From positions 7,442,001 to 7,506,000 of the forward strand of contig CM075993.1 of assembly GCA_038087875.1 (NCBI GenBank): 64,000 nt of DNA. The letters run 5' to 3'. Positions 2,575 through 58,729 of this stretch are shown one piece after another. A program made the position numbers and the translations under genes. The notes under the pieces were generated by a model. It was not told the origin of the DNA and ran no database searches. It saw only the letters and a program-made list of their open reading frames with translations. How positions within the stretch are numbered: the first letter of the stretch is position 1; each line of letters begins with the position of its first letter. This stretch comes from Malacoraja senta (Eukaryota).

Positions 2575-2577
2575 TAA

Positions 2578-9672: not shown

Positions 9673-10566
9673 GCTAATTGATATTGGAATAGAACAGATT
9701 GTTCTCTTGCATTGAATATTTGCACATTATTAATGCTTGGTGATCATGCTAACATATTAGTGAACATTGCAATTTAACATCAATAGTGCCATTATCTAAC
9801 AATTAAATGAGTGCACAGCACTTACATCCACTACAACCATCATCATGAAGGTACAGAAAGTCATAAATAGTCCTTGACAGTACCAAAATCAACTCTTCCA
9901 CCTATAGTGCGCCCACTGTGCACTGGCAACTGGCACACACAGCGCCAAAGACCCGGGTTCCATCCTGATCTCAAGAAGTGCCATCTGTGTAGGGGGTGGA
10001 TGAGAAAGTTGGGCAACAGAATTAGTATGAACGGGCGATCGATAGTCAGCGTGGACTCAGTGGGCCGGAGGGCATGTTTTCATTGGTATCTCTGCGCTAA
10101 ATTAATAAACCTCTCTACGCTAAACTATTAAACCTACCTAACACTCGCAGAAAACTGGTACCACGAGCCAGCATTGAAAGAAAATTAGGATGCAGGTTTT
10201 GCTGCTGTCAACAATTCATAAGCTGAACAGTTCGCAAGTCGGAAAATGCAGCACAAGCTGAGCTCCCAAAAGAATGGCTCAGCGACACAGCAGCCAGCAA
10301 ATCCACGCCTCCCGTCTTTCAAATGGGGTGGAAGATTGCAACCTTCACGTGGTCCGCCCTGTTTCGACTAATGCAATCAACTCGACGTGCACAAACGGAA
10401 GATCATATAGAACAAGTTGTCCAACAACTTTAGGCTGTGCACGCCACACGAAAGAAGAGTCTCCCAAATACTTGTTCGTAGCACGTGCTGCAAGTAGTGT
10501 GCTCCGGAAGCTGGGGAGGATCTGTAATGTAATCTACAAAGTCGCAGTATGATATAAGCCACCATA

Positions 10567-10753
10567 GGTAGACAAAATTGCTGGAGAAACTCAGCGGGTG
10601 TGGCAGCATCTATGGAGCGAAGGAAATAGGCAACGTTTCGGGACGAAACGTTGCCTATTTCCTTCGCTCCATAGATGCTGCCGCACCCGCTGTGTTTTCT
10701 CCAGCAATTTTGTCTACCTTCGATTCTCCAGCATCTGCAGTTCCTTCTTGAAC
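10567..10753. mobile_element. Fold-back (inverted terminal repeat) Penelope-derived mini-element
   Basis: About 74-bp inverted arms plus a one-sided tail of about 35 bp; 15-bp TSD ATATAAGCCACCATA (10552-10566 / 10754-10768). Confidence 0.8.
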
Positions 10754-11749
10754 ATATAAGCCACCATATTCTCCATTAACCCAACATGTTGCATCCATAC
10801 ATGTCACTCCTCGAACATCGGGTGAATTCCTTTCCCAGTCACCTGAAACAAAACCAGTAGTTGTTCGTGTCGAGATTTTATATCGTCAACATAAACAAAA
10901 GGCTTTTTGCCACTTTTAATCAATTAATTCACAACAGATGCTGGGTATAAGGAACAAGCTGCCAAAGGTGATGGTGGAGGCAGGTACAATTACACGCTTG
11001 GTCAGGTACTTGGAGAGGAAAGATTTAAAGGGCTACGGGCCAAATACAGGCAAATGGATTAGCGTAATGTTGCTTGGATGAATAAAGGCCATGTCCATTT
11101 TCCCGAGTTACTCACGAACTCTCCGAGTTTTCCCCTTGATTCGAACTCGGGGAATGTCGGTAGCAAGCTCGTAGGAGCCCGTAGGAGTCCGTAGATGTTT
11201 CGTAGTGGCTCGTAATGCCAGCCGAAGGAACTCGGGGCATCAGGAAGTCGGGACGTTTTTTCAACATGTTGAAAAATGTCCACGAGTTAAAAATATAGCC
11301 CGAAACCAACGAATGGCTTATAACCGTAATTCTCCGAGTTCGATAATTCTTCACTTTTAAGTTACCAAAGCAGTGGCATCATACATGAGTTTCCAATTAA
11401 GTTTCATTATATATTTGGTTGCTAATTAAAATGAGTCTTCTATCCAAATTAATGTGCCACTTAAAGAGAGGTAGCTATGCTGCAAGCTGCCACACACTTC
11501 ACTTGCATACATCTTCCCTTCTCCTCATGCTGCTGCCAAGCTTTCTGTCAGCAGCAGCAACTTGGTAATAGTGACAATAGATCCCCTCAGCAAAAATCGC
11601 TGACATGCATTGAGAATAAAGGGGGCAACAATGATCCTTGCAGTAACCACCACTAAACATGTTTACTCCCACTCTTTGCTTTTTATTAATTAAAATCTCA
11701 ATCCATGCCAGTATGTTGACCAATCATGTGGCATCTTATTGTAACCTTC

Positions 11750-12385
11750 CAGGAATCAACATGTGGTTAAGTGCACATTGTCAGATTTTAATAAAGGCCA
11801 TTTTACCCCTCTCTCCACACCCCCATTTCAGGGCACCATAATGTTTGGGACACATGGCTTCACAGGTGTTGTAATTGCTCAGGTGTGTTCAATTGCCTCC
11901 TTAATGCAGGTATATGAGAGCTCTCAGCACTAGTCTTTCTTCCAGTCTTCCATCACCTTTGGAAACTGTTATTGCTGTTTATCAACATGAGGACCAAAGT
12001 TGTGCCAATGAAAGTCAAAGAGGCCATTATGAGACTGAGAAACAAGAATAAAACTGTTAGAGACATCAGCCAAACCTTAGGCTTACTTAATCAAATGTGT
12101 GGAACATCATTAAGAAGAAAGAGAGCACTGGTGAGCTTACTATCGCAAAGGTACTGGCAGGCCAAGGAAGACCTCCACAGCTGATGACAGAAGAATTCTC
12201 TCTAAAAATAAAGAAAAATCCCCAAACACCTGTCCGACAGATCAGAACATTCTTCAGGTATGGATTTGTCAATGACCACTGTCTGCAGAAGACTTCATGA
12301 ACAGAAATACAGGGGCTACACCGCAAGATACAAACCACTAGTTAGCCGCAAAAACAAGATGGCCGGGTTACAGTTTGCCAAGAAG
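11750..12385 (+). mobile_element. Truncated Tc1-like transposon (N-terminal transposase pseudogene)
   Basis: MRTKVVPMKVKEAIMRL...TVRDISQTLGL, WNIIKKKESTG, GRP and ARYKPLVSRKNKMA.LQFAKKY pieces in shifted frames (paired-like HTH region). Confidence 0.75.
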
Positions 12386-15515: not shown

Positions 15516-15592
15516 CATTGGACCCTGACCATGCCATTGTTCCCTCAGTACAGCACTGGTGTGTTAGCCTGTCTGTGCTTTTTGTACAGATA

Positions 15593-17207: not shown

Positions 17208-18103
17208 TATCTTGTTATTAGAAGGGAAATTATATAGAAAATGCTAATGTTTCATCTATCAAAGCTTTGTTCAAAATAATGCAGTCGAGCCCCCCAATTG
17301 ATTCAGTAGAAGACAGACTTTCTAGTTATCTCTGCTGAAGATGTGGAACATGAACCCCTGACAGTAGTTCTTCCAGATATCTTCAACGTAAACCACGCCA
17401 TCATTCAGTTCAAAGAAGGGCGCACAAAGGCAGTAACTACGGGGAAATCAATGAATATGGAAGTTTATGGCAACTTTAATCGATATCAAGGGGAAGAGCT
17501 GTCAACAAGGAGGATATAATTCATTTAATTCATATGCTGCCCTATTTTGCTTGCAAGACATCACGGGCACAATTTAACAACTGTTCTCATTCAATACATT
17601 AGACAGAAAATGAAAGGTTGCCGTAAATCTGCATATATCCCCCTCACCTCTGGATTATGGATTTAAGTCGATCTTGTAAATGGTAATGATGTTAGTACGA
17701 TGAAGATATCAATAACACAATGAGTATGAACTTGTTACATAGTCATACAGCGTGGAAACAGCCCCGTGGACCCAACTTGCCCATGACGACCAAAAGGCCC
17801 CATCTACACGAGTCCCACATGCCTGCGTTTGGCCCATATCCCCCTAAACCTATGCTTTCCATGTACCTGTCCAAATGCTTTTTAAACATGTGATAGTACT
17901 TGCCTCAACAACCTCCTCTGGCATTTTGTTCTATACAACCTTGTGTAAAAAAAGTTGTTCCTATTAAATCTCCCCCCCTCCCCCCCTCCCCTTCCCTGCT
18001 TCCCTCCCTACCTCAAACCTATGTCCTCGGGTTCTTGATTCCCCTACTCTGGGTAAAGGACTCTGTGCAATTACCCTAGCTCGCCCACTCATGGTCTTAT
18101 ACA

Positions 18104-18271
18104 AGGCAGACAAAATTGCTGGAGAAACTCAGCGGGTGCGGCAGCATCTATGGAGCGAAGGAAATAGGCAAGGTTTCGGCCTTCGCTCCATAGATGCTGC
18201 CGCACCCGCTGAGTTTCTCCAGCAATTTTGTCTACCTTCGATTTTCCAGCATCTGCAGTTCCTTCTTGAAT
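18104..18271. mobile_element. Fold-back Penelope-derived mini-element
   Basis: Inverted arms as in 10567-10753; 13-bp TSD ATGGTCTTATACA (18091-18103 / 18272-18284). Confidence 0.8.
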
Positions 18272-18559
18272 ATGGTCTTATACACCTCTCTAAGACAAAC
18301 CCTCATCCTCCTGCGCTCCAAGGAATAAAGTCCTAGTCTGCTCAACCTCTCCTTATAGCTTAGGCCCTCGGGTCTTGCGAAAGTCTTCGTAAACTGGGTC
18401 CAATCTGGGTTATAGGTTTTTGCTCAATAGTATGCCTTGCTTCAGACCCAGGCACCGCTTGGCAACGAGGGCATAATATACACTGCTGCTTCAATGACTT
18501 ACGGAGCAAGTGCTGCAATGTTAGACGCATGATTTTTGGAGTGAGACATTAAGTGGTCT

Positions 18560-21888: not shown

Positions 21889-23037
21889 TTACACCATCAG
21901 GTATTTATTTTGCACAAGCTTTAGCAGTGAGAGAGCATCTTTTCCACTGTCAACAGCTAAAGGGGCACCCTGCAATTAGAAGACTCTAGCGATCTGTAAA
22001 TAAATGTAATGGTGCCTGGGAAATCTGCAGAAGGTCCTTAACATTGGAGAAAAGTTATCACAATTCTTAAAGTTTCAGCTGTTGTGACACTCGCAGCGAT
22101 GCCAAACATGGGAAAGCGCTCAAAAACGTGAAGGGAAGAACTGTCAAATGTAAAATAAAACGTGAAACACTGCTGCAATTAGCAGCAAAAAGAGGAAGAG
22201 AAATGAGAGCAAGGGAGAAAAGAATGAAAAGCTGTTATTGAATCAGGCATATAATCAAACCAATTTTCAATGACACAATCTGTACCCATTTGACTGTCAG
22301 AAAGGCAGCAGACGTCAGCTTCATGGAGCTTTACATGATAAACTACATTATACTCCTCCCTTTAGCTGATGCACGGTGTCGGGTACTGAGCCGTCCTACA
22401 GCACTGAATGCGAGCATGGTGGGATGGAACTGCAGATGCTGGCTTACACCCAAGATAGACTCAAAATGCTGGAGTAACTCAGCAGGACAGGCAGCATCTC
22501 TGGAGAGAAGAAACGGGTGACATTTCGGGTCGAGGTAGAAAGGTCTCGACCCGAAATGTCACCCGTTCCTTCTCTCCTGAGGTGCTGCCTGTCCCTCAGA
22601 GTTACTCCAGCATTTTGTGTCATTCTTCGCATGCATGTTAGTCTACAATCTACACACATCGCCTTACATGCGGCATATATTTTAACCTTACAATCCATAA
22701 ATACCCAACATACTTGGGCAGCACGGTTGCAGAAGGGTAGAGTTGCTGCCTTACAGTGCCAGAGTCCCGGGTTCGATCCTGACGACAGGTGCTGTCTGTA
22801 CAGTTTGTACGTTCTCCCTGTGACCGTGTGGGTTTTCTCCGAGTTATCCGGTTTCCTCCCACACTCCAAAGACGGACAGGTTTGTAGGGTAATTGATCTC
22901 AGTAAAATCTTTAATTGCCACTAATGTAGGAAATGTTAGCGTGTGGGGATCGTTGGTTGGCCCGGACTCAGTGGGCACAAAGAGCCTGTTTCCGTGCTGT
23001 ATCTCTGAACTAACTGCTTGTATGACCATTGCAATTT

Positions 23038-23553: not shown

Positions 23554-24036
23554 GACCATTGCAATTTAATCAAAAAAATACAGGCTGTTTCCAAAAATAC
23601 AGTGATGATTACATTGCCACCTTCTCTCCTGCAACTTCAGCCCTCACACACCTTCTCAAAATACCCTGGGAGGCAGTCAAGAGAATTTAGTTGAACAGTA
23701 ATAATGCCTCTTTGAATAACATCATTGTCATAACTCTTCTCTGACCTTATTTTCCTCAGAGTGGCATAAAATTCTTGACATTTTCCATGTTAGAGGTTTT
23801 AATTGCAGCGTTGCATGACACAGTGACATCCCCCTCACAGAAAACGGTTTCAATAGCAAGAAAAGAATTGAGTCACACACACCAATGAAACAAGCCCTTC
23901 TGCCTGACTTGTGAATGCTGTCCGCGTACCCATGTAGACTAGCCCCATTTGCCCTTGCTTGACCCATATCCCTCCAAACATTTCCGATCCAATGTACCTC
24001 AAGTGGCTTTTAAATGCTCCTGAAACTGTTTCATCT

Positions 24037-24235
24037 GTTTAAGAAGGAACTGCAGATGCTGGAAAATCGAAGGTAGACAAAAATGCTGGAGAAACTCAGC
24101 CGGTGAGGCAGCATCTATGGAGCGAAGGAAATAGGCAACGTTTCGGGTCGAGACCCGAAACGTTGCCTATTTCCTTCACTCCATAGATGCTGCCTCACCG
24201 GCTGAGTTTCTCCAGCATTTTTGTCTATCTTCAAT
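24037..24235. mobile_element. Fold-back Penelope-derived mini-element
   Basis: Near-perfect hairpin centred on CGTTTCGGGTCGAGACCCGAAACG; TTTCATCTG repeated on both flanks. Confidence 0.75.
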
Positions 24236-25707
24236 CTTTTCATCTGGTAGCTTGTTCCATATACCCACCGACCACTATGTGAAAAAGTTGCTCATTGGGT
24301 ACCTTTTAAATCTTTCCGCACTCACTTTGAACCTCATTCACGATTCCCCAACCCTAGTAAAAACAGACTGTTCATTCACCCTCTCTATGCCATTCATGGT
24401 TTTATACATCTCTATAAGATCACCCCCGAGTCTCCTTCACTCCAAAGAATAATGTCCTGCCCAACTTCTCCCTATAACTCAGTCCACGGAGCCCCTTATA
24501 GCAGGCTGACCAAAACGAAACACGATACTCCAGGTGCAGCTTTACCAATGTCTTGTACAAGTGAATCATAATATCCCAATGTCTATATTTAATGCTTACT
24601 CTTGAAGGCCAGCATGCCAAAAGCCTCTTCACCACCTTGTCCACCCATGACCCGACTTTCTATGTACTGCTGGGTCCCTCTGTCGACAACCGTCCACAGG
24701 GCCCTATCGTTCACTGAAAATCCTACCCTAGATTGACTTCCTAAAATGAAACACCTCACATTTATCTGAATTAAACTCCATTCGCCGCTTCTCGGCCCAC
24801 TTGTCCAGCTGATCAAATCCCATCACGATTCTTAATAACGTTCTTCACTATCTATGACACTACCTATTTTAATGTCGTCAGCAATCTTATTAACTGTGCC
24901 TTGTACATTCACATCCAAATCATTGATATAGGTGACAAACATTAATGGACCTGGCACCAGAGGTACACCACTAGTCATGACCCTCCAGTCTGAAAATACA
25001 ACCTTTCACCATCACCCGCTCAAGTCAAGAGAGTTTATTGTCATGTGTCCCAGATAAGACAATGAAATTCTTGCTTGCTGCAGCACAACAGAATATTGTA
25101 GTCATCCAGCCATCAAACTAAATATGTATTCAATTAATTAACTCTCCCTGGATCTAACCTTCAAGAGCAACCTACCACTCGGAACCTGATAGAACTTGCT
25201 ACTCCAAACAGACAATATCAACCACCTTACACTTATTGGCCTAATTGGTTGCTTCCTCAAAAACTCAATCAAATTCATGTGGCACAATCTCTCACGTACA
25301 AAGCTATGCTGACTATCCCTAATAAACCCATGTCTTTACAAATGCACGTAAATCTCCTTCAGAATACCCTCCAGTAGCTTACGCACCACAAACATTAGGC
25401 TTACTGGTCCATGGTTCCCGAGTTCTTTGCAGCCATCTATCTATATAACTAAAAGTCTCATCTTGACCACTTCCTGTCTGCGCTGTATATTGATTTTACA
25501 AAACACGCTACCATATATCGCTATGATTTTTGGCCATCTTATTCACAGTCCTCCGCTGAGGCAGCCCTGAGGATTTTTTTGATTGATGAAAAATAAAAAA
25601 GTTATGAATGTTGAAACAAATCTTGAGATCAGCTGATTGGTCCTCTCGCTTATCAATCACCATGATGAAGGTAACTCCCCTTCCGGGGGGCCAGGAATAT
25701 AAAGCCC

Positions 25708-25854: not shown

Positions 25855-25867
25855 AATTTCAAGGAAT

Positions 25868-26068: not shown

Positions 26069-29000
26069 TAAGAATCCATTCAGCCCACAATGTCCATACT
26101 AGCCCTCTGGAAACCAGTCCCTACGGCCCACAACACCCATACGCACTCTAGAAAGCCCCTGCCCCCCCACTGGCCACCAATATTGGAATTGGTGGAGAGG
26201 TGGAATATTACATTGGGGGACCAGCCCTCCCGTGTGAACATGGGACCCAACGGGTCCCACTTAGTCTAGTTCTTAAATAAAGGCTCAACATTAACCACCC
26301 ACCAGCCCTCTGGTACATGACCCTGGGCTAAGATTGATGCAAATGTCTCAGGCAGGATTTCCAATATCTTTATCTTCCCACGATGTTCTTTAATACATCT
26401 GATCAGGTCCCATAGATTTATCTACTTTCATACGTTCTAAGATGCCCAAAGCCTCCTCGCTTGTAATGCACACTATCCCCAAGACATCCCCTTTAACTTC
26501 CCCGAGACCCTGGCCTTTATATCTTGCTCCAAGGGAAAAATAGAGCAGAATTATTCATTGAGGTCTTCACCTGCAGCTTCACATATAGATGTCAACTTTG
26601 GTCTCTGAGAGACCCAATCTTTCCCTGGTTACTGTTTTTCCCTTAATATATTAATAAAATCTGTTTGGATACTCCTTTATTATCTCTGATCAGATTACCT
26701 CAAGCCCCCTTTTGTCCCCCTCTCTGTTTCCTTCTGCTCCTCAATCCCTGTACTGCTCCAGGGATTTTGCTTGATCCCAGCCACTTGTCCCTAACCCATG
26801 CTCCCTCCTTTTTTCTGACTGGAGCCTCAATATCTCTTGTCCTCCAGAGTTCTCCAATCCTGCCAGCCTGGCCCTTCATGCTACAGGAACAGGCAGACCT
26901 TGAACTCTTACTAATCTGCAGGGTCTCGACCTGAAACGTCGCCTATTCCTTCACTCCATAAATGCTGCCTCACCCGCTGAGTTTCTCCAGCATTTTTATC
27001 CGCCTTTGAAAAAAGTCAGTCAAAGTATCCTTTATTGTCATTGAGACCTTTCAGTCTGAACAAAATTTCATGCTTTGCAGTCATAACATAGAATAAAATA
27101 ACAAAACACACAATGAACACAGATTTAACATCTTGCTATCTTGCTAAATGAGAGAACTCTTGCTATCTCACTTTTAAATGCCTCCCTTTGCCCACAAACA
27201 ACCTATTCCAATCAAGTGATATAAAGGTCACTAAAAAAGTGGTCAATATTTATTGATTTTTAATGTTCTATTTTATCCAGCCATTCCCATAGACCTCTGT
27301 AGACCACCAATCGAACTGGTTCTTACTATGGAATTAGTTTTCACAGCATAGCTTGAAAGCACTCTTAAAATTAGCAGCTACAATAACATCACAAAGGTGC
27401 CCTGCTGTTCATATCTGCTTTGCCTTTTTAAATGCAGGCTGCGTCAATCTTGGAGCACTTCAAAGATTTCAAATGCGTTCAAGCGGAAGAAGGATTCTGC
27501 AGCAAAGGTAAAGTGCTCGTGGAACTCCGAGGATCTGTGGAGGGAATGTGCATGGAGGAACTGCGGATGCTGGTTTAAACCGAAGATAGACACGAGAAGC
27601 TGGAGTAACTCAGTGGGTCAGACAACATCCCTGGAGAAAAGGGATGGGTGACGGGACCTGAAACATCGCCTATTCCTTTTCTTCAGAGATGCTGTCTGAC
27701 CCGCTGAGTTACTCCAGCTTTTTTCGTTGTCTATCTTTGGATCTGTGGAGGGAATGGACAGGCGACGTTTCATGTTGAGGCCCATCTTCAGACCGACCCA
27801 GCATTCAGGTTTATTGGACAATGCACTAACACACATCCTCACAGTTAGCACTTGCTGATGGCCACAGTCATTGGCGACAGCATTTGATTCATCGCTTGTG
27901 TCAATGAATAAAAAATGAGAGGGCGAATAGAATAAAATTCAAGATATAAATAGACATAACACATTATATGCCAGTCCTGTCATATCAGCAAACACCCCAT
28001 ATAATGAATGACATGCCATTTAACTGCAATGCAACCACGTATGTGTGATTAACATTTACAGCTCAACACACCCCCACAGCCCACACAACATTGCATCCGC
28101 TACCACATGACAATCAGCAGGACACAACAGGGCCTCCTACACATTCGGACACCACAGGGAGTTGATCAATGAGGAAGATGATTTTGTTTTCAAATCCATT
28201 TCCTGGATCTGGGAGTCACCAACTTGGTTTGCATTTATTGCATATCCTACGGCCCTTGAGCTTGCCAGGGCGTTTTTTAGGGTATTCATGTCAACCTCAG
28301 TGGTGGGTCTGAATGAAGAAGGAACTGCAGATGTCGGTTAACAAAACAAAAAGGATACAAAGTGCTGGAGTAACTCAGCAGGTCAGACAGCAACTCTGGA
28401 GAACATGGATGGGTGACGTTTCAGGTTGGGACCCTTCTTCAGACTGCTTGTGGTAGTGGGGGGAGGGGGCGGGGACAGGGACACAGAAAGCTGCGAGAGA
28501 GGTGGGGGCAGCACAAAGCCTGGCAAGTGGTAGCTGGATAAAGGGGAGGTTCGATAACATGTAGGAAGAAGGAAAAATAAGATTGATGCAAATGGGAGTT
28601 TACTGGTCAGCATGGACACTGTGGGCTGAAGGGCCTGTTTCCATGCTGTATCTCTCCAGGACACTAAGAACATGCCAAAGTCCTGCAACAGAGATCAGTT
28701 TTACAAATCTCAGGATTCTGCAGCCCAAACTTTAAACTTTCCCCATTGTTAACCATGTCTTTTGTTGTCGCTGTGTTCGGGTTTCAAAGCTGGGGGAGGT
28801 GAGCAGACAGCGATTCAGCGAAGGAGGTTGACATTGAAAAGTAAAGGAACAATTTAGTTGAAAGTGGAGCACAATGAAAAGGAAACATAGGAACCGTTTA
28901 TGTTGCATTTAAGGAAGAACTGCTGATGCTGGAAAATTCGAAGGCAGACGCAGAAAATGCTGGAGAAACTCAGCGGGTGAGGCAGCATCTATGGAGAGAA

Positions 29001-34661: not shown

Positions 34662-34715
34662 CTGAAAATCAAGAGCAAATTCATTCAATTAAATATACTT
34701 TATTCAACTGCACTT

Positions 34716-41307: not shown

Positions 41308-41951
41308 AGGGCCTGTCCCACTTGGGCCGTCACTTGCGCGACAGGCCGGTAGTGATGGTCGCGTGACGGTCCCGCGAGAGTCGCGCGCATCATCATGCGC
41401 CCGCACAGCGGTCTGGAGCGCATGACATCATTTGAAGATGGACACAAAATGCAGGAGTAACTCAGCGGGACCAGCAGCATCTCTGGAGAGAAGGAATGGA
41501 TGACGTTTCGGATCGAGACCGTTCTTCAGTCTGAAAGAAGGGTCTTGACCCGAAACGTCACCCATTCCTTCTCTCCAGAGATGCTGCCTGTCCCGCTGAG
41601 TTACTCCTGCATTTTGTATCTATCTTCAATCTTCTTGGCCCCGCTCTGGGAGGAGGAGTGGGGGCAGATCCGGATCCGCAACGGCCATGAGCCCCAGGCT
41701 GAGTTTGACGATCGTTTGCCTGCTTCTGCTGCTGTTGGAGGTGAGACGCTGCGCCGCACCAGGGTCTTGGGCCTGTCCCACTTTGGCCGTCGGTTACCCG
41801 ACAGGCTGGTGGCGCGTGAAGATTTCGTGCAGGATGAAGTCCACATTCCTCCACGCCACTCCACACCACTCCATGTGCCCGTCCCACACTACCCACACGC
41901 TAGCAGGTCGCGTATATGGCGCGCTAAAGACAGCCAAAAGGGACAGGCCCT
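41308..41951. mobile_element. PIF/Harbinger-like MITE (composite) inside a CR1 end, interrupted by a Penelope hairpin
   Basis: AGGGCCTGTCCCAC...GGGACAGGCCCT; removing it with one TTA restores the CR1 sequence ACCC-TTA-CTAATCAAG; second left TIR at about 41768. Confidence 0.75.
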
Positions 41952-43304: not shown

Positions 43305-46300
43305 TCACTAATCAGCCAAATGACATCAAAGCCCCTCTCGTTTCTCTCCCTCTTCTTCATACAAAGGATTACAGACAACACACCTGGGGTTTCCAATGTG
43401 GCTAATAAGGCCAATGTGGAATCCATAGTCTCTGCCCTAACCAGAAGACAGAGGAGCAGATTTAGGCCATTTGGCCCGAGTCCGCATCGCCATTCGATCA
43501 TGGCCGATCAATTTTTCCCTCGCAATCTCATTCTGCCTCCCCCCCACAACCTTCGACGCCCTCACTAAGGTGGCCGCGTACAATGGCAGACTCGCTGACG
43601 GTCTGTCGTGTCCTTTTCTTCTTTTGGTGTATCTAGTTTGTTGTTAAATGTATGTCTTAGTGTATCTTTAGTGTTATGTGAGGGGTGGGGGGGGGGGGGG
43701 CGGGGGAAACTTTTTAAATTTCATTCCTCGACGGAGATGCGACCTTTCCGTATCGTAACTCCATCCCCACTGCGGCCTAACATCGAGGAGCTGGCGGCCT
43801 CTTGCTGGGGCTCGACATCTTTCATCTTTAACACTCAACACAACAAAAGCGTTGAGAAAAATATATCCCAAGTCGAAGTGTGTAGAAAGGAACTGCAGAT
43901 GCTGGCTTACACAGAAGATAGATGCAAAATACTGGAGTAACTCAGCGGGTCAGGCAGCATCTCTGGAGAAAAGGAGTTGGTGACGCTTCAGGTCAAGACC
44001 CTTCTTCAGACTGAGATTCAGAGGAGAGGGGAACTAGAGATATGAAAAGATACAAAGACAAGTGAATGGAAGGTCAAGTAACCCTTGCATCCTCTCTCTC
44101 TCTCTCCCCCCTACTAGTTTCATTGTTGTCCTACTTATTTTCACTGTTTGTATTCACTCATTATGACCTTCTCCACAGCCAACAATAGACCATTGTGGGC
44201 TTCCTTGATTTTTTTGATCATCATTGCTGGCTTTGATTTGTCCTTTTCATGCCTTTTATTCACGCGTTCTTTGCACCTTTTCATATCTCCAGCTCCCCTC
44301 TCCCCCGAATCTCCGGCTGCAAGAAGGGTCTCAACCCAAAATATCAGCACGTTCCTTCCTCCAAAGACGCTGCCTGGCCTGCTGAGTAACTCCAGCAATG
44401 TGTGTCTATCCCAAGTTGAAGTCTGATTTAGGAGAGGTGACATTTGGTCAATGGGCGGGAGCGCTTTGAGAATAGAATTCCAGAGAATGGGACACACACA
44501 CAGGCAACTGATGCACAGACCAAGCTCATCACCCTCAGCATCACACCTAACGCTCTCATTATAAAGTGATTCTGCAGCCAGCTGAGCACTTTGGAAGATC
44601 CCAGTGGTTAATTTGAAACCCTCATTAGCTGCTACATTTCTTCCACGCAACAGTTCAGCTGCTTTTGACAGCATCCAGCCATTGACAGCATGGGGAACAC
44701 ACTTGGATATGACCCAAAGGTTATCAAGTATCTTTAAAATTGACTCATGATTCTCACAAGGGAATTAGTCTGGGACCTGCAGAGATAACCTCACAGAGAC
44801 GGCTGTAAATTACCCCTTTGACAGTGTCTTCATATTCTAGCGTGTGGATTATACTGATAAACTGGTGAATTATTCCAAAGAGAAATTTTAACAGGAATGG
44901 TAAAAGAGGAATTTGAGGTCAGAACAATGAGCATGAACATCGATACATGGAGCAATTGGTTGGGGATACAGACACTGGACTTTGTTGGCCTTGAAACAAC
45001 CATGTGAATGGCAGGCCCCGAATCGCAAGGCTGGTTGGAAGAGGGATACGGTACTGCCGAAAACAGCCTTACACTGTGGGCTACGTGCCAATGAAAGCCT
45101 GGGGTGTGTGATCTAGAGGGGAAAGCACAAGTCAAAACTATCTGCAAGAAAATGAGGAAGATGGTGCCAAACCCATAATGGATGACACTACAGATAAGAG
45201 ATGCCCAACAAAGCAGAGCGTTTCCAGTGTTACAAAATACTTAGACTTATCTTCTAACGCGGGAGAAGAACAAAGGGAAGAGATAAGACTTTTGCCTTCC
45301 ATCACAGTGAGGAGGTGTTGGAGATTCTCTGTGATGGATGTTTGTGTAAATTGTGTTAAGTGTGTGTCTTGTTTTTTTTTGTGATGTCATGACTGCAGGA
45401 ATGAAATTTCGTTCAAACCTTGTCTGTTTGAATGACAATAAAAGGCATTCTATTCTAACCTTTAGACTTTAGAGATACAGCACAGGCCACCAAGACCATG
45501 CCGACCAGTGATCACTTCCGTGCACCAGCATGATCCTACACACACTCGGGACAATTTACAATTGTTACAGAAGCCAATTAACCTACAAACCTGTACATCC
45601 ATGGAGTGTGGGAGGAAACCGGAGCACCTGGAGAGAACCCACAGTCACAGGCAGAATGTACAAACTCCGCACAGACAGCACCCGTAGTCAGGATTGAATC
45701 CGGGTCTCTGGCGCTGTAAGGCAGCAGCTCTACCTGCTGCGCCACTGTGCCGCCCTGATGCAGAAACAAACAACAATCAGTCTTCGCCCCATCACGCAGT
45801 TAGGATTAAAATGGAATGTGGTTTCAAGTGCTGAAGGCAAGAACAGCAAGAGTATAGATGAATGTGTTCTGACTAACAGAATATTAATGCAGCAAAATGT
45901 TAACGATTCTATTTCTGAGGCAAGGGAATGCATTGAAATAGTCCTATATTGATGTGCTTTTCCCCATTATAAAAAGATAATGATACATTCGATGAAGAAA
46001 ACGCAATTGAAAAAACACAAGAGGAAACAGGTCATCAATCTGAAAAGTCAACTGTTTCTCCCTACCGAGCAAATGCAGTGTTTTGTTTTCATTTTAGATT
46101 TCCAATGTCTGCATTTTTTTTAGGTTTTGCACAAGCACAGTTTTGTATGAATAACACCTCCTCTCTATCCTTAGCAGGAACACAAATATTCACACTAATT
46201 AAAGATGAGGAGCACCGTTCTCCCATCCAAAATCATTCTCGCAGAACTATACCCAGTTTCTCATTGCAATCCCCACTTGCTCCTTGGATGATTCCAAGAT

Positions 46301-46868: not shown

Positions 46869-48563
46869 ATTTAGTTTAGTCTACACATGCAGCATGGAAA
46901 CAGGCCCTTCTGCCCATCGTATGCTCATTGAGTCCGACCAATCATCCGTTCATACTAGTTCTGTGCTCTCTAATATAAAAATTACCATAAAAACCTAGCC
47001 CTATCGGACACAAACTGTCATTTTAGTAGCAAATACATTCTCCAAACTCAAACCAAAAAGTGGTTAAAATGTGGTGATAAGAATCACAGTGGTAGAGTTG
47101 CTGCCTTACAGCACCAGAGATCTGGGTTCGATCCTGACTACAGGTGCTGTCTGTATGGAGTTTGTACGTTCTCCCCGTGACCTGCGTGGGTTTTCTCCGG
47201 GAGTTTCAGCTTCCTCCCACACTCCAAAGATGTACAGGTTTGCAGGCTGATTGGTTTGGTAAAATTGTAAAATTGTCCCTAGTGTGTGTAGGATAGTGTT
47301 AGTGTGCGGGGATCGCTGGTTGGTGCGGACTCTGTGATCCGGAGGGCCTGTATCTCTAAACTAAACACAGAACCCCAAAGCGCAGTGAGAGACCATTCAC
47401 CCGGTTACACGTGAGTATCCACTTAATTCCACTTCCCTCATCTAATCCATAATCATGCAATTATTTCCTTTACAAGTACACATCGAAGATAAACACAAAA
47501 CGCTGGAGTAATTGTGTTCATCTTCTGTTTAAACCAGCATCTGCAGTTCCTTCCTACACAAGTACACATCTAATCCCTTATTAAGATTACTACTAAATCT
47601 GACTATTATCCTTTCATCATATTAGTTCCTAGCCTTACAAGAAATTGCATTCCTTATTCCAGTCTTTTCAAAGATGTGCAAAACAGTGTGAGCTGGGGGT
47701 TTACAGACACAAATCTCGGAAGGTGACGGAATTTGCTGGGATAGTTTCAATGGGAGGCGGAAATAATACCTGGATTTATAAATAACTCAATAAAAAAAGC
47801 TCTTGAACAGAAAGGCCATGTTATAAAGACACATGGGGCAGGAGAGCTACACCAACCCCCCACAAGGGGAGGACAGAGAAGAGGGCAGAATCTCTTCTCT
47901 CGTGGGGGATTGGGGAGGGAGGAAATCTCCCCGAGAGTAGAACTGAGGCAGGGGTCCCTTCTTCGGAATAGAGAATGGAGGAGGGGGCTTCTCTTTGTGA
48001 ACAGAATCAGGGGCTTGCCCACAGAGCAAGGAAGGAGCAGACAAGATGGACACAATATCCTGGAGTAACTCAGCGGGTCAGGCAGCATCTCTGGGGAAAG
48101 GATATATGTGACGTTTCGGGTCGGAACGCTTCTTCAGCCAGAAAGATAAGAGGCGGTGGGGGGGGGGGGAACTGGAGGTGAGAAAAGGCCAGAACAAATC
48201 AGGGCCAGTAGCAGATGGAGGGTGGAGCCCACAAGGGGCCAATGTTGGCTGGGGAAGATGTGCCAACGAGAGGGATACAAGGATGCGAACGACATAACTG
48301 GTGGGACGACAGGGGTGGGGGAGGGGAGGGAAAGAGGGCGGAGGGGAGGGGGAATGGGAGGGAATGCAGGAGTTACTTGAAATTAGAGAAATCAAAGTTC
48401 ACGAGCAGAGAAGGGCAGGAACCAAGGCACACCAAGATAAAATGGGGACAAACAAAAGACGGGATGGGTCTGACAAATAAAGAAGCAAATAAAGAAGTAA
48501 GGGGGAAAGATGAAGAGGGGGAAGTGAACAGTAGGAATAATATCACCTTGGACTACACCCTTA

Positions 48564-49169: not shown

Positions 49170-50461
49170 TTACGCTGCCCAGTAGCTAGTTTGAGAGCTT
49201 TGCAGGGCATGATTACAGCATTCCTGTAGGTTGTGATCACGCCTGGTACAATAGGATAATAATAGAGAATATCTTTCGAGTTCTGTGTCAGCAAAGATGC
49301 TCAACTATTTTCTCTCCCGAGAGTGCAGCTGCTTGGCTTTCAGCTCTGGGACTGGAGCCATGCTCTCCCAAGGCCAGGCTAAGATTTCAGCTGGTGAAGA
49401 AGCTGCTTCCAGGGGAATCACCAGACGAGCTCATCCATCAAAGCATCAAAGCTGTCTGCTCGCCAGGTGGCAGGAATCAACCCGGCCAGCCAATGCCTCT
49501 CGGATATCCAGGGCTTTCCATTCCAACCACTTCCCAACAGCTCGGTGCTAACATCAATCTGTTTAGTTATTCTTTAGTTTAGAGATACAGTGCGGAAACA
49601 GGCCCTTCGGCCCAACCACTCCACACTGACTGGTGATCCCTGCAAATTAACACCATCCTACACACACCAAGGACAATTTTACATTTATACCAAGCCAACT
49701 AACCTACAAACCTGTGCGTCTTTGGAGTGTGGGAGGAAACCGAAGATCTCAGAGAAAACCCACGCAGGTCACGGGGAGAACGTACAAACTCCATACAGAC
49801 AGCACCCGTAGTCGGGATCGAATCCGGGTATCTTGCGCCGTAAAGGGAGCAAATCTGCCACTGCGCCACCGTGCCTCCCCATGCAAACTGAACAGTTTAA
49901 AGAGCAAGGGCGCGCTCGAGACACGTTTTAAAACTTCCTATGGGGAGACCCAGCAATAACTTTTCTTGGGGAATGACATGTACACAAGCCAGAGACAGAA
50001 AATGCAACATGACCTTACCCGGTAATTCATCATACATCTCGATAGGAAACATAAAAAAAAAACGACAAAACCCCTCTAAATTTAATGCTTTGCTAAATAT
50101 TCACTGAGAATTGCATCTCCTGTACGCACAAATTCACAGGGACTGTCAGTGCCAGTGTGATCAAGGATTTCAGTAAAGCAGTGTGTTTTTAATTAAATAA
50201 ATGGGAAATGGGCAGTATTGCCAGGTAGATCCCACACACATCTCACTGTGCAGAATGTGCAGCCAGGAAAAATAATTAATCCACACGTTTGACGTTGCAA
50301 TGGGAACTGGACGAAATAATACTCTGCAAAAGATGAAATTATACAGAATAAATAAAATTAATGTAAGTCCCTACTTTCTCCTCCCCTTCTCAGCTCTGCC
50401 TCAGCCCACTGGCTCCACCTCTTCCTTTCTTCTTCCCGACCCCCCCCCCCCACCCTCACAT

Positions 50462-50497
50462 CAGTCTGAAGAAGGGTTTCGACCCGAAACGTTGCCC
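50462..50497 (+). ncRNA. Minimal hammerhead ribozyme motif in a Penelope terminal repeat
   Basis: CTGAAGA (50466-50472), A, stem II GGGTT-TC-GACCC, GAAA, CG, TT. All catalytic-core bases are present; helix I is weak; activity untested. Confidence 0.6.
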
Positions 50498-51220
50498 ATT
50501 TCCTTCGCTTCATAGATGCTGCCTCACCCGCTGAGTTTCTCCAGCATTTATGTCTACCTTCGATTTTCCAGCATCTGCAGTTCCTTCTTAAACATCATCA
50601 TGTAATTATCTTGTCAGAGAGTCATATAGTGTTGAAACAGGCCCTTCGGCCTGACTTGTCCACACCGACAAACATGCCCCACCTACACAAATCCCAACTG
50701 CCTGCATTTGGCCCATATCCCTCTAAACCTTTCCTATCCCTGTATCTGTCCAAATGCTTTGTAAACTTTGTGATAGTATCTGCCTCAACAACCTACTCCG
50801 TCCGGCATGATCATGATTCAGTAAGGAGTGTGGAAAGACATGCTCAGGGTATTGAGTTGCACTGAAAGATGCACCATGGAAACAGGCCCTTCGGCCCACT
50901 GTGCCCACGCCAGCCATCGATCACCAGCTCATACTAGTTCTATGTTATTCCACTTCCTACCCACTCAGGGCAATTTTACAGAGGTCGATTAACCTACAAA
51001 ACCACATGCATTTTGGATGTGGGAGGAAACCGAAGCACCTGGAGGAAATCTACGGGGAGAATGTGCAAACTCCATACCAGAGGTTGGGATCGAACCCAGG
51101 TCTCTAGCGCTGCGAGGCTGCAGGTCTGTCTACCAGTTGTGCCAGTGTGCTACCCTAAGGGCAAATATGCTCTTTTATGCATCCACTCACTACACACTTG
51201 GGGCAATTTACAGAGGCCAA

Positions 51221-51625: not shown

Positions 51626-52959
51626 TTAACCTACAAATCTGCATGTCTTTGAGATGTGGGAGGAAACCGGAGCACCCGGAGGAGAAGGTGCAAAATCCAC
51701 ATATATGCAGCACCAGCGGTCAGAATCAAACCTGGGTCTCTCCGTCTGTTTTTTACTGAGATCCCCATCGTGGAAGCCTGCCTTAAGCCAATTCTATGTT
51801 CAAGAAACAGATGAGAGCACCAGATACAACAAAGGCTGTGGCTTTAGTTACGGGAAACTGCATTCCAAAATGAGCCAGGCTACCATGGTTCAATTCTATC
51901 GGACTTTGGTTAGACCGATTTTTTGAGGATGGCGGGCAACTCTGGTCACCAAATTACCAGAAAGATGTTGAGACTTTGAACAAGTGACAATAGACAATAG
52001 GTGCAGGAGTAGGCCATTCGGCCCTTTGAGCCAGCAACGCCATTCACTGTGATCATGGCTGATCACCCCCATTCAGTACCCCGTTCCTGCCTTCTCCCCA
52101 TATCCCCTGACTCAGATATCTTTAAGAGCTCTATCAAAGTAACCCACTTTGGAGTGGGTGCGGAGGGAGTTTACCAGAATGCTGCCTGGATGAGAGGGAT
52201 TTCGGCTACAGGGAAAGGCTGAATAGACTTGGATTGATTTCTCTGGAACATCAGAGGTTGCGGGGAGATCCGACAGGTATATATTGATGGGGTAGACAAA
52301 ATTGCTGGAGAAACTCAGAGAAACATCCCGAAACGTTGCCTATTTCCTTCGCTCCATAGATGCTGCCGCACCCGCTGAGTTTCTCCAGCAAATTTGTCTA
52401 CCTTCGATTTTCCAGCATCTGCAGTTCCTTCTTGAACATATTGATGAGGTGGACAGGTTGAGAACCTTTCTCCCAGGGTGGACATGTCCAACACTAGAGG
52501 GCATAGTTATCTGGTGAGAGGGGGAAAGGTGAATGGTGATGTGCGGGGCAAGTTTTATTTTATACAGAGTGAGGGGCTGGAACCCACTGCCAGGGTTGGT
52601 GGTGGAAGCAGGAAGCAGTGCCGTTTAAGAGGCTTTTAGATAGGCATTTGGAAGTGCAGGGAATAGATGGATATGGAGGCCAAGTCACTGGATGGATTTA
52701 AGAGAGAGTTAGATAGAGCTCTAGGGGCTAGTGGAGTCAAGGGATATGGGGAGAAGGCAGGCATGGGTTATTGATAGGGGACGATCAGCCATGATCACAA
52801 TGAAAGACGGTGCTGGCTCGAAGGGCCGAATGGCCTCCTCCTGCACCTAGTTTCTATGTTTCTATGGATTATGTACAGGTAGATGCGATCAGTTTAATTT
52901 GGCATCATGTTCAGCACAAATATTGTGGGCCGAAGAGCCCGTTGTATGTGCTGTAACTG

Positions 52960-53540: not shown

Positions 53541-55596
53541 TACTGTTCTATGTGCTGTACTGTTCCATGTTCTAAGTTGAAGATAGGCACAAAGTACTGG
53601 AGAGAAGGAATGGGTGACGTTTCAGATCGAGACCCTTCTTCAGACACCCATTCCTTCTCACCAGAGATGCTGCCTGTCCTGCTGAGTTACTCCAGCATTT
53701 TCTGTCTACCTTTGATTTAAACCAGCATCTGCAGTTCATTCCTACGCACTATGTCCCAAGTTGTTCCTGTACAGATACTAAACTGAAATTTACATGACAC
53801 TTGCCCGAATAGACCCTGTCCACAATAATAGAGAACAATCATATATAGACAATTACTGCCCATGCTGGAATCTGGAATAAAAATCAAAATGCTGGAAGAA
53901 CTCGGCAGCTCAAGCAGCATTTGTGGAAGCAAAATGATTCATGCAGGCTCCAAAAGTCAACTTACTGCTTTTGTTTCTGCAGGTGCTGCTGGAACTACTG
54001 GATTTAGTTTAGTTTAGAGTTGCAGCATGGACAACGGTCCTTCAGCCCACCTTGTCTGTGCCGAGTAGACAAGTTCTATGTTATCCCGGTTTCACATCCT
54101 ACACACTAGGGGCAATTTACAGAAGCCAATTAACCTACAAACCTGTACGTCTTTGGAATGTGGGAGGAAATCGGAGCAGTCACGGTGGCGCAGGGGTAGA
54201 GTTGCTGCCTTACAGCAAAATGCAGCGCCGGAGACCCGGGTTCAATCCTGACTATGGCCGCTGTCTGTACGGAGTTTGTACGTTCTCCCCGTGACCTGCG
54301 TGGGTTTTCTCCGAGATCTTCGTTTTCCTCCCACATTCCAAAGACGTACAGGTTTGTAGGTTAATTGGCTTGGTAAATGTAAAAATTGTCCAGTATAACA
54401 TTGTTGAGCTTCCAGTATCCAGTGGACGCTTCGGAAAGTTCAAGGTGCAAGGTACAAGGAGAATACCCACGCGGTCACAGGGAGAATGTACAAACTCCGT
54501 ACAGATAGCACCCTTAGCCAGGGTCTCTGGCGTTGTAAGGCAGCAACTCTACCGCTGCACCACTGTGCCACTGGCATTTTGTTTTTCCGATGGGATGTTA
54601 TCAAAATGCTGGTCCACACCCTTTGTGATTTTATACTCCACGATTGAGTCCCCTTTCAACCTCTTCCTTCCAAGCCCTGCCTATTCAATCTACTGTCTGT
54701 GGAATTCTCTGCCTCAGAGGGCGGAGGAGGCAGGTTCTCTGGATGCTTTCAAGAGAGAGCTAGATAGGGCTCTTAAAAATAGCGGAGTCAGGGGATATGG
54801 GGAGAAGGCAGGAACGGGGTACTGATTGGGGATGATTGAATGCCGTTGCTGGCTCGAAGGGCCGAATGGCCTACTCCTGCACCTATTGTCTATCTCTCCT
54901 CATGTATAATTTTCTGGTCCTGGCAATGTCCTCTTTAATCTCCTTTCCAGTCCAGTCACCTCTTTCCAGTACGGTGACAAGAACGGTACATAATACTCAA
55001 GCTATGCCCTAACAAACATTGCATTCAAACATAACCCCCATGCCCTTACATTCTAGGTATGAATAAACAAAGGAAAACAACCTGCATGCATTTATAATCA
55101 CCTCATTGACCTGTTTACGGATCCATGGTATTCAGAAACAAGAACGAGAATCTGAAAATTGAGACAATGCGGAAACAGAAACCAAGTGCAGGTTGACAGG
55201 TGGAGTGAAGAGATCTTGCAGAACAATAGAACAGTGCAGCATAGGACCCTTGGCCCATAATATCTGTACTAACCATGATGCCAAATTAAACTAATCGCAC
55301 TGATCTGCATACGATTCATATACTTCCATTCCTTGCATTTTAATTGCAGCGCATTGTTGGCGCAGCCAAGACCATCACACAAACCAACCTCCCTTCTATT
55401 GACTCCATTTATACCTCACGCTGCCTCGGCAAGGACAGCAGCATAATCAAGGGCAAGTCACACCCTGGCCACTCCCTCTTCTCTAGTATAGAAGTGTATG
55501 GAAAGCGCGCGCCTCCAGATTCATGGACAGTTTCTTCCCACCAGGCAACAGAATGATCCGACCACAACCAGAGAACAGTGCTGAACTACTATCTAC

Positions 55597-55990
55597 CAAA
55601 GATCCTATAGCGAAGCAAGATAGACCACTCCTTCTAAACGCAATGGGCTGACGTGTAGTACGCAACGGAGCAGAACGTGGGCCTTATTTTCATCCATTTC
55701 AGTAACCCGACTCGCAGTGTAAGCAACGTTGCAGGGGAACAGTTTGTGTTAATAAATTATAATTCTGAAAATGAGGAGAAGATTTTTACCAAAGAATTTT
55801 GATTTTTACGAGGATGTTTCCGTAACCGGCTTCCGTCTCCGCACTAGTATCTTTGCTCCGCTATGGGACCTTTAGTGCGGAGACGGAAGCCGGTTACAGA
55901 AATGGGGCCGGAAATTACCCATGAATCTGTCCATGACCGTACTACGTCTTTTTCGTCGAGTGCTCTGTCTTGCTTGCTATAGGACCTTTG
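55597..55990. mobile_element. hAT-type MITE
   Basis: CA...TG ends; TIRs CAAAGATCCTATAGC / GCTATAGGACCTTTG; perfect 8-bp TSD CTATCTAC (55589-55596 / 55991-55998). Confidence 0.85.
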
Positions 55991-57370
55991 CTATCTACCT
56001 CGTTGGTGATCCTCGGACTATCCTTGATCGGAATCTGCTGGCTTTATCTTGCACTAAACGTTATTCCCTTATCATTGTATCAATACACTGTAATTGGCTC
56101 GATTGTAATCATGTATTGTCTTTCTGTTGACTGGATAGCATGCTACAAAAGCTTTTCACTCTACCTCGGTACATGTGGCAATAAACTAAACTGAACTGAA
56201 CTTTAATGTGCCTGTCTAAATTCCTCTTAAACATTGCCACCACAGAACATAGAAAATAGGTGAAGGAGTAGGCCATTCGGCCCTTCGATCCAGCACCGTC
56301 ATTTAATATGATCATGGCTGATCGTCCAGAATCAAGACCCTGTTCCTGCTTTCTCCCCATATCCCTTGATTCCGTTACCTCTAAGAGCTAAATCTAACTC
56401 TCTCTAAGAGAGTTCCACAGAAAATACAAGGTGCAGAGTATCGCTGTGGTTAGTTCTTTCCAACTGGTGCTGTGGTTAGTTCTTTCCACCTGGTGTACAA
56501 TGCCAGGAGGAGTGGCACGGTGCCAGTGAGCGAGCTGGGAGCTCACTTCCCAGCGCCCTCGGAGGCGCTCCGGGTGTTCTGAGGCCGGCAACGGGAGGCG
56601 CCCTGGCGCAGAGTCGGAGCGCTGGCCGTGGGAGGCGAGGGAAGCCGTGTTCGTGGGTCAAGCTGTTGGCAGAGTAGTATTAGGCCACGGCAGGCCCTGC
56701 TGCAGCCAGGGGGTCGATTGGAACGGGCACCACAGGATGCCCCACAGAAGCTTTGTGTGCGGATTTGGATGCGGCCTGGCATGTCTTTCACCGCACGGGG
56801 CTGCGGTGGAAGACATCGACAACATCACCTGGCCAGGCTGACCACCACAACACTGACCCAATGCCATCACCAGGACACATGAAGACTACATTTTTAAGAA
56901 CTGAAATGAAACTTGAAGGATAAAAAATGGCACCAGCAACACTTGCGTACTGCGTCAGTGTAATCTACTATTCTTAAACGCTTGTACTAAAATATGATTG
57001 TGCTTATGAATACAAGATTTTCACTGGTGTATACCATAAAGGAATTTCACTGTACCTAGGTATATATTGCAATAAAGTACCAAAGGGATGTACAGGAGGT
57101 GCTACCTCAAAAAAGCAGCCAGCATCATCAGAAACCCATACCACCCAAACCACACACGCATTTCACTCCTAATATTGGGGCGAGGTATAGGAGCTTGAAA
57201 AGTGTAATGTGTAGGAAGGAATTGAACATGCTAATTTAAACCGAAGATAGACACAAAATGTTGGAGTAACTCAGCGGGACAGGCAGCATCTTTGGAATGG
57301 GTGACGTTTCAGGTCGAGACCCTTCTTCAGACTGAGAGTCAGGGGAGAAGGAAACAAGAGATATGGAATG

Positions 57371-57584
57371 TTTAAGAAGGAACTGCAGATGCTGGAAAAT
57401 CGAAGGTAGACAAAAGTGCTGGAGAAACTCAGCGGGTGCGGCAGCATCTATGGAGCGAAGGAAATAGGCGACTTTTCGGGCCGAAACCCTTCTTCCGAAA
57501 CTTTTCGGCCCGAAACGTCGCCTATTTCCTTCACTCCATAGATGCTGCCGCACCCGCTGAGTTTCTCCAACACTTTTGTCTACC
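57371..57584. mobile_element. Fold-back Penelope-derived mini-element nested in another Penelope repeat
   Basis: Inverted arms; 16-bp TSD CAAGAGATATGGAATG (57355-57370 / 57585-57600). Confidence 0.8.
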
Positions 57585-58729
57585 CAAGAGATATGGAATG
57601 GTAAGGTGTGAAAACGAGAGAACTACATAGACTTGGGTGTTTACAGAGTAATACGTTTACATATCTGTCGTTCTGCTCCATGTAAGAATTTCATTGTCCC
57701 GTTTCAGGACATATGACAATAAAACACTCTTGGCGCATCTTGAAGCAACCCGCACAACTTGAATTCTTCACAACCAAAATAAATGGAGAAATCTTGTTCA
57801 GATACAGGAGGCCAAATAACTGGAGTAGGAAGTGGTAATTTTCACACATACTCCTGAAAATGGTGGCTGACAGATGTTGCCAGGGCGAGTCAACAAAGCT
57901 TTGTTCTCCATTCCTTACACCAAGGATCAAAGTGAGAACATGTATTCTGTGGGCGCCAGCATTCGTCAGCTCAATAAACAGTAATTTCAGGCAACCAAAC
58001 ACACTAAAGTTGAAGGACGTTTTTGTGAAAGAGCAACTTTCATCTAATATCTTTTTTATGGAATGAAACCTCAGCAGTAATGAGGCCAGTGGCAAAGGAA
58101 GCTTCTCTTTACGCAAGTAGGCAATAAGCCCAAGGATTTTATGGTCCTAAAATAAATAATATTTCCATGTTTCATTTTGCCTTTGCATCGGAAGTTTCAA
58201 TAGCAAATGACAAGAGAAAATGCCTGCCCCATCTTGGTGCCCATTTAAATCAAAATAATCTTCTTTGATGTCTCGTTTTCACACCTTACCCTTCCATATC
58301 TCTGTGCCTCCCTCTCTCGACTCTCAGTCAGAAGTAGCATCTCGACCCGAAACGTCACCCATTCCTTCTCTCCAGAGATGCTGCCTGTCCCGTCTGAGTT
58401 ACTCCAGCATTTTGTATCTATCTATGATTAACTACAGCTACTCCTCACACTGGGCATGCAACTATTAACACATACGTGGTGTATGAACTCAGCAGATCAG
58501 GCAGCATCTGTAGAGGGAAATGGACATGTGGCGTTTCAGGTCCCAACCCGAAATGTCGTCTGCCCACCTCCAGGTTCAGGAACAGCTTCTTCCCAACAAC
58601 CATCGGGCCCTTGACCTACACAAGAAATATGTTATATATTTATAAAATATATCTTTTTCTTATGTATCCTTTACAGATATAAATAATAGCTGAATCTGTT
58701 TTGATGCATTTGGCGCTGTGTGTGTGTCT

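Follow-up and report, generated by a model that had tools for sequence, protein, structure and literature searches.

The stretch examined here (the window, 64,000 nucleotides) comes from the skate Malacoraja senta (GenBank assembly GCA_038087875.1, contig CM075993.1, positions 7,442,001 to 7,506,000) and is dense in copies of one short repeat, the terminal repeat of a Penelope-like element (PLE). BLAST returned 53 matches and a profile search 56, and about 50 repeat arms stand against two traces of an open reading frame (ORF) in the 64 kb. Copies lie head to head as short inverted pairs flanked by a direct duplication of the target site. An original prediction had listed five such units and placed their apexes at a hammerhead ribozyme motif; here we describe the pairs, their 5′ edge and their probable origin.

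The terminal repeat and its inverted pairs

Read in the ORF sense, with the G of GAAAC taken as +1, the repeat runs from a pyrimidine tract through TCAGT, the hammerhead core, stem II, GAAAC, the cut triplet and ~65 nt to a first end at +73, followed by a 35-nt tail and a second end at +108. At 2575-3295 it lies directly 3′ of an ORF remnant (2654-3295) whose match to Pfam GIY-YIG is weak (E 9e-4, below the curated cut-off) and whose nearest relatives, at 61-84% identity, come from skates and rays. The more distant relatives P0024 and P0025, 47-54% identical over the query, carry a reverse transcriptase (RT) together with GIY-YIG; no RT was found within the window. A second ORF trace with GIY-YIG lies at 36210-36413. 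Just upstream of the nuclease, in a shifted frame, is a C-x4-CxxC motif, and a CX2-5CxxC linker before GIY-YIG is common to Neptune and Nematis and absent from Penelope and Poseidon (PMC8557442). Therefore, the element belongs to Neptune or Nematis, and a Poseidon label was dropped; Neptune is the likelier because the host is a vertebrate. Judged by its sequence, the repeat forms the 3′ terminus of a Neptune-type PLE, made up of a minimal hammerhead and the 35-nt tail, and the prediction that the units are minimal PLE insertion products stands. Two single copies are needed below:

2022..3302, minus strand: the longer of the two; its ORF portion, the frameshifted 3′ part with the C-x4-CxxC linker and GIY-YIG (2654-3295), runs into the terminal repeat; 9-bp duplication (2022-2030 / 3294-3302); interrupted by an inverted-repeat element at 2048-2580
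50364..50594, plus strand: young single copy, used as reference; intron-like stretch 50364-50464; short end at 50558; tail end at 50594

From the matches we took 17 inverted pairs, 15 of them independent; two inside a duplicated segment were dropped, and two degraded part-pairs (312-425 and 58470-58560) were left out of the count. Arm ends were set by eye, with an ambiguity of a few bases. The pairs are listed without strand and with their duplications included, the first five being those of the original prediction:

10552..10768: 15-bp duplication; arms at 10567-10642 (short, to +73) and 10644-10753 (tailed, to +108); apex symmetric, at a palindrome spanning −10..+5; arms differ at 2/74 sites
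18091..18284 (the 18104 pair): 13-bp duplication; short arm to −2; tailed arm from +17; asymmetric join with ~2-nt microhomology; arms differ at 1/58 sites
24029..24246 (the 24037 pair): 9-bp duplication; left arm tailed, reaching −12; right arm short, starting at −5; the two joined through stem II of the hammerhead with a 5-nt overlap; RNA fold −158.7 kcal/mol, z −23
52281..52446 (the 52291 pair): 9-bp duplication; left arm +46..+73 only; 8-nt spacer; tailed right arm from −3; second occurrence at 60583-60727, within a 4.8-kb duplication
57355..57600 (the 57371 pair): 16-bp duplication; left arm tailed, reaching about −21; right arm short, starting at −9; junction between them complex; inserted in an older copy, within its upstream part (57211-57359 and beyond 57600)
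27531..27756: pair of an older subfamily; exact 18-bp duplication; sits in older copy 27741-27796, whose 5′ end is at −22
28892..29366: 14-bp duplication (1 mismatch); arms separated by 276 bp of unrelated DNA
43869..44422 (the 43883 pair): long-armed; 11-bp duplication (1 mismatch); arms to about −95 and about −255
47472..47570 (the 47476 pair): at 83 bp the smallest pair; apex at about +56, without hammerhead sequence; 13-bp duplication, exact
53565..53763: short arm reaching −22 and tailed arm starting at +8; the 15-bp duplication is weak (3 mismatches); second occurrence at 61891-62037
4946..5116: old pair without a clear duplication; an inverted-repeat element interrupts the left arm (to −21), which resumes near 4602-4617; tailed arm begins at about +10
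22420..22632: old pair; tailed arm extends to −8 and short arm begins at −16; duplication not found
29569..29780: old pair lacking a clear duplication; short arm reaches −18 and tailed arm begins at −6
40639..40835: old pair; two short arms; apex at the −25..−17 palindrome; duplication not found
41428..41632: old pair; two short arms; apex at the same −25..−17 palindrome as the preceding pair; duplication not found

All five predicted units, 150-215 bp in size, are real and lie where they had been placed, with exact duplications of 15 bp (10552/10754), 13 bp (18091/18272), 9 bp (24029/24238), 9 bp (52281/52438) and 16 bp (57355/57585); the 24037 insertion truly spans 24038-24237 and does not end at 24235. 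As a control, a score of at least 9 was reached in 5 of 492 random flank pairs by the same scan. The list of five was incomplete, there being 15 independent pairs in the window, and across these the duplication is clear in nine (0-1 mismatch; 9-18 bp), weak in one (3 mismatches) and undetected in five, all with arms 15-22% diverged. All six young pairs (arms <7% diverged) carry a duplication, and none of the 18 single copies scanned has one above background. The difference in arm length was also correctly foreseen: the short arms stop at +73 to +82, whereas the long ones continue to +107 to +109, an extension of 35 nt, and the left arm of 52291 is indeed the more deleted. Moreover, the tail is found on exactly one arm in 13/15 pairs (P = 0.003 under arm independence). 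Divergence between arms ranges from 2% to 27%; therefore, several subfamilies produced the pattern over an extended period, and hairpins, as they age, decay and are not homogenised. Two pairs are nested in older copies of the same repeat family (27531-27796 and 57211-57630). Both part-pairs have a very short second arm, and one turns in stem II, the other at −22.

Apex position and the 5′ edge

Apex midpoints fall in −25..+10 for 12 of the 15 pairs, a clustering with P = 1e-9 against a uniform spread over −255..+60 and P = 8e-4 for 12/14 over −25..+60. The apex is thus at or beside the hammerhead, as predicted, and a uniform spread is rejected. Of the 22 arms extending beyond −1, all but two have stopped by −25 (20 of 22). 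Palindromes with a stem of at least 4 bp occur at −32..+5 in four copies checked, with one exception at about +39. Joins are symmetric at a palindrome in 4/15 pairs, drawing on three palindromes in −25..+5, and the remaining joins are asymmetric, with little microhomology or short filler. The proposed collapse through the stem II palindrome holds only in part, since the join was guided by a palindrome in those four pairs and by stem II itself in 24037 alone. The junctions of the 15 pairs are all different and so give no support to subfamilies with identical apexes; an apparent shared-apex subfamily at 60583 and 61891 was rejected, as both copies fall within a 4.8-kb duplication (96%) that adjoins an N gap. 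We infer that the apex sits on the hammerhead because the hammerhead occupies the first 30 nt past the 5′ edge and holds palindromes, and not as a result of cutting.

For the edge, we aligned one raw poly(A) run and three sets of contigs, four of the 24 listed runs, to 50340-50640 at 86% likeness, giving 81,506-107,542 contigs per set and 9,205 raw reads (6% of the RNA run read). The alignment uses one reference with private variants and a poly-C run, its figures are lower bounds from the matches listed, perfect palindromes assemble poorly in contigs, and the organism label of the RNA run differs from that of the best-matching DNA set; a search across sequencing runs listed no RNA set among its matches. 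Depth in run X22 climbs from 8% of peak at 50450-60 to 56% at 50461-71, that is across −36..−15, a step at the 5′ edge of the hammerhead. Loose 5′ ends in X22 number at least 479 reads at −23 and at least 547 at −22, with mixed neighbours (agreement 0.32-0.35).

50461..50466, plus strand: edge at TCAGTC, with the 5′ ends of copies concentrated at 50463-50464 (−23/−22); at least 206 contigs in X4

Within the window, copies end at −22 at 412, 27796 and 53597. The edge lies 2-3 nt 5′ of the hammerhead core, and TCAGTC reads both as initiator-like and as a 3′ splice site. At the 3′ side, raw reads show at least 446 loose ends at +73 and at least 937 at +109, with the tail at 46% of peak depth. Their strand ratio is 53:47, and near-equal strands are consistent with passenger transcription of dispersed copies.

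Joints between copies were also recovered. The strand-change joints listed pair the −25..−21 edge with varied partners, each at about single-locus depth; among the matches listed average depth per contig is ~21-43 and none is amplified. Head-to-tail joints from tail to edge (50594 to 50460-50462, a 134-nt unit) occur in at least 21, at least 43 and at least 35 contigs of three runs, again at about single-locus depth, and may be partial tandems or retrozyme-like repeat seeds. Template jumping at an RNA end would yield tail-to-edge joints. Loose ends at 50500 and 50549 were set aside as reference artefacts, the family sequence continuing there, and so were ‘skips’ of 73-84 nt, which are present in DNA contigs too. 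A metagenome pattern scan gave one match, a lone 22 nt in bacterial-looking sequence, which was rejected.

The stretch between the ORF end and the hammerhead (50364-50464) is intron-like, with a donor-like GTAAGT, a pyrimidine tract and CAG. The 50364 copy begins at the donor, and copies near 7091 and 48350, like the right arm of 43883, begin at most ~25 nt from the ORF end, a possible second 5′ edge.

Proposed two-strand priming and its alternatives

On balance we favour the reading that the units are head-to-head pairs of stubs, each made once, at insertion, from two cDNAs that were primed on two nicked strands, ran off before the hammerhead and were then joined. The endonuclease would nick both strands 9-18 bp apart, as the duplications suggest, and for the anole element both target strands are nicked and extended in vitro (PMC11167929). 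One 3′ end would then prime at +108, where the tail ends, and the other at +73, 35 nt inward of it. Ends at +73 and +108 are observed, and their role as reverse-transcription starts is carried over by analogy from the anole work, where the Poseidon protein PAc starts at two internal sites on either side of the tail, is independent of ribozyme cleavage and is a predicted dimer (PMC11167929). The combination of one tailed with one untailed arm, together with the two anole starts, is most simply read as each nicked strand priming one cDNA, one at each start. Both starts would lie near the 5′ end of a transcript beginning in the upstream terminal repeat, such that copying would yield ~100-135 nt and either run off at −23/−22 or stop in the hammerhead hairpins. 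The edge itself is observed and its sharpness suggests run-off at the RNA 5′ end; that it marks the transcript start we infer. Being of the same polarity, the cDNA ends could pair only at the palindromes of −32..+5 and would otherwise undergo end-joining with 0-2 nt of microhomology or short filler, a mechanism to which the observed junction structures point. The hairpin would be a by-product that then decays. Moreover, among the 13 tailed/untailed pairs there are eight whose untailed arm extends beyond the tailed arm on the 5′ side, so that each arm has sequence unique to it. Therefore, in these eight neither arm can be a copy of the other, which argues against simple fold-back, and ‘fold-back’ is probably the wrong mechanism.

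More speculatively, and with somewhat less than even expectation on our part, Neptune elements might make a retrovirus-like ‘strong-stop’ product, with an initiator 3 nt before the core, a dimeric enzyme priming from both nicked strands at two fixed starts, and two-cDNA hairpin stubs as the outcome of most insertions. If so, skate genomes would hold many thousands of junctions recording the unresolved second half of Penelope insertion, and the partial tandems would come from template jumps at that RNA end.

Several observations weigh against the two-cDNA reading. Three apexes lie off the hammerhead, at about −175 (43883), +56 (47476) and +21 (52291); two pairs have two short arms; the long single copy (2022..3302) has its 9-bp duplication and no second arm; and only 9 of 30 arms have their partner as the closest match, which does not demonstrate a shared template. 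Later apex deletions could mimic the reciprocal asymmetry. Upstream divergence between subfamilies may contribute to the depth step, about 10 of 20 copies inspected continuing into differing upstream sequence, and the poly-C run of the reference bears on the same step; however, divergent subfamilies share the CAG and so would not end at −23/−22 with mixed neighbours. The edge, a putative transcript start, is also a good 3′ splice site, and in D. virilis the start lies 46 bp upstream of an intron whose end abuts the hammerhead (PMC4209133, PMC2377424). Lastly, the anole data concern the Poseidon clade, whereas the skate family is probably Neptune.

True fold-back, in which a tail-primed cDNA snaps back on a palindrome and copies itself to +73, the asymmetry arising by later apex deletion, is related to the self-priming proposal of Arkhipova et al. 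2013 and is in our judgement unlikely. The four symmetric apexes at palindromes suit it, as does the reading of inverted-junction palindromes as self-priming in PMC3846280, and both arms of 24037 share a variant absent from other arms while both arms of 57371 share another. The 57371 variant (place 50547), however, makes up ~13% of depth elsewhere. Fold-back also predicts that the tailed arm extends furthest 5′, which is true in 4 of 13 pairs, tied in one and wrong in eight, including 18104 with its nearly identical arms; moreover, untailed single copies are common, so that +73 works as an independent end.

It is rather improbable that insertion used two primers as we propose but that the −23/−22 edge is a splice-related RNA end, or a stall of the enzyme at the folded hammerhead, on a longer read-through RNA. 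The pyrimidine tract does end in CAG just before the core, reads place the donor-like GTAAGT of 50364 directly after the ORF end, the intron of D. virilis runs up to helix I (PMC4209133), and 2 of 30 arms and about half of the inspected single copies extend further upstream. However, an acceptor cut would put most ends at −21, whereas X22 peaks at −22 and −23, with −21 absent from the best six listed. No common upstream exon appears among the matches listed, and the donor is weak or absent in older copies.

The original prediction saw in the hairpins a non-autonomous class; that they form a self-propagating family, copied whole like a retrozyme or a miniature inverted-repeat transposable element (MITE), we regard as very improbable. 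The density of arms is very high, the 134-nt head-to-tail joints resemble a retrozyme monomer, and retrozymes have been proposed to derive from the pseudo-long terminal repeats (pLTRs) of PLEs (bioRxiv 10.64898/2026.07.22.740005); symmetric subfamilies could also be missed, given the poor assembly of perfect palindromes and the small sample of pairs. Against this, no two of the 15 pairs share a junction, the two apparent repeats are one duplicated segment, the joints among the matches listed stay at about single-locus depth per contig, a descriptor scan finds an intact hammerhead in none of the pairs, orientation varies, and the ends are the two ends of the parent element.

Cleavage by the ribozyme had been predicted to set the length of the units; that hammerhead self-cleavage makes the template 5′ end, with arms stopping at +9, is scarcely credible when 23 of 30 arms extend 5′ past the predicted cut and depth shows no step there (85% of peak at 50483-93, 83% at 50494-504). 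Two arms end within +7..+11 (at +8 and +10) and five further 3′; about 1.6 ends within +7..+11 are expected by chance (5/85 of 28 arms over −25..+60, hand calculation), and none of the ten arms of the five predicted units ends there. The only intact minimal hammerhead in the window by descriptor scan, at 50466 with a predicted cut at 50493/50494, does match the minimal description, having the conserved core, an extra base, a G-C closed stem II of 5 bp, palindromic 15.2-16.2 and a helix I of 2 bp, and its common variants in reads and contigs keep stem II and the cut triplet. Rfam gave no match at gathering score and no hammerhead match, the sub-threshold matches being to microRNA-type hairpin models and taken as chance, and isolated folds did not return the hammerhead fold. 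Fragmented poly(A) reads show no pile-up of RNA ends at the cut, which is a weak test. Moreover, ribozyme mutants of the anole element insert normally, with no reads ending at the cut (PMC11167929).

Known systems and genomic surroundings

Canonical insertions of endonuclease-bearing PLEs comprise an inverted pLTR, an optional tail of 30-40 bp, a short duplication and a junction palindrome (PMC3846280, PMC8557442). PMC3846280 describes a tail on one side, duplications of 8-10 bp and junction palindromes taken as self-priming, and PMC8557442 holds the same architecture to be general and calls its formation unresolved. The skate pairs share with these the head-to-head order, the one-arm tail, a similar duplication (8-10 bp there, 9-18 here) and some junction palindromes. 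They differ in that both partners are stubs without an ORF, far outnumbering ORF-bearing copies, and in their sharp shared 5′ edge; in contrast to the reading in PMC3846280, their reciprocal asymmetry speaks against self-priming. The inverted pLTR, the tail, the duplication and the palindromes at junctions have all been described in print, and the units therefore form no new class.

The ends bracketing the skate tail would correspond to the two internal starts of anole PAc in vitro, 3′ of the hammerhead and with no need of ribozyme cleavage (PMC11167929). Unlike PAc, the skate family has the Neptune/Nematis linker, and paired stubs, duplications and a run-off edge are absent from the available part of PMC11167929. 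The hammerhead resembles the minimal hammerheads of metazoan PLEs in its extra base before stem II, G-C closing pair, palindromic 15.2-16.2 and absence of helix III, and that of D. virilis in its 2-bp helix I (PMC4209133). Opposite-strand hammerhead pairs 100-700 bp apart are noted in the same source (PMC4209133), whereas in the skate pairs the motif is cut through or incomplete and a single intact one lies in the window. Like non-LTR retrozymes, the skate units are short, non-coding, hammerhead-related and tied to PLE terminal repeats (PMC7229834, bioRxiv 10.64898/2026.07.22.740005); unlike them, they are head-to-head and none is complete, where retrozymes are head-to-tail with a complete hammerhead per unit (PMC7229834).

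One copy in the window, 7091-7323, joins an inverted upstream piece (about −146..−42) to a forward piece (−52..+75) in the manner of a LINE-1 5′ inversion; its duplication was not found. During LINE-1 twin priming the second nicked strand primes a second cDNA, which gives an inversion with a microhomology join within a duplication. There the second primer lies at a variable internal site and the pieces barely overlap, whereas in the skate the 3′ starts would be fixed and the arms overlap into a hairpin.

How PLEs finish insertion and form inverted or tandem ends is stated to be open (PMC11167929, PMC8557442). Dense, short and young junctions such as these allow ribozyme-cut templates, self-priming fold-back and two-strand priming to be compared by counting, and of the three proposals the first appears to fail and two-strand priming to fit best. 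Our comparison also took in PMC2377424 and PMC8969392. Stub pairs in cartilaginous fish, a 5′ run-off edge and PLE twin priming were not found in the accessible literature, which is weak evidence as subscription papers, repeat databases and some supplements lay outside its scope; on that evidence the 5′ edge and the two-primer argument may be new to print. If transcribed, the stubs would form near-perfect 80-bp hairpins, a possible source of double-stranded RNA.

The window holds no host gene among the 91 of 135 non-repeat frames scanned, which gave only pieces of Tc1-type transposase. Tc1/mariner transposase remnants lie at 12212-12448 and 16011-16985, with many LINE 3′ fragments elsewhere. 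A direct duplication of 4.8 kb (50914-55662 / 59208-64000; 96% identity, small indels) begins right after a gap of 200 N and is probably an assembly artefact, a duplicated haplotype. Copies at 2048-2580, 4618-4944, 8517-9136 and 32346-32680 form an inverted-repeat (MITE-like) family, two members of which are inserted at nearly the same point (~+52) of the Penelope repeat. Altogether, ~45% of the window is self-repeated.

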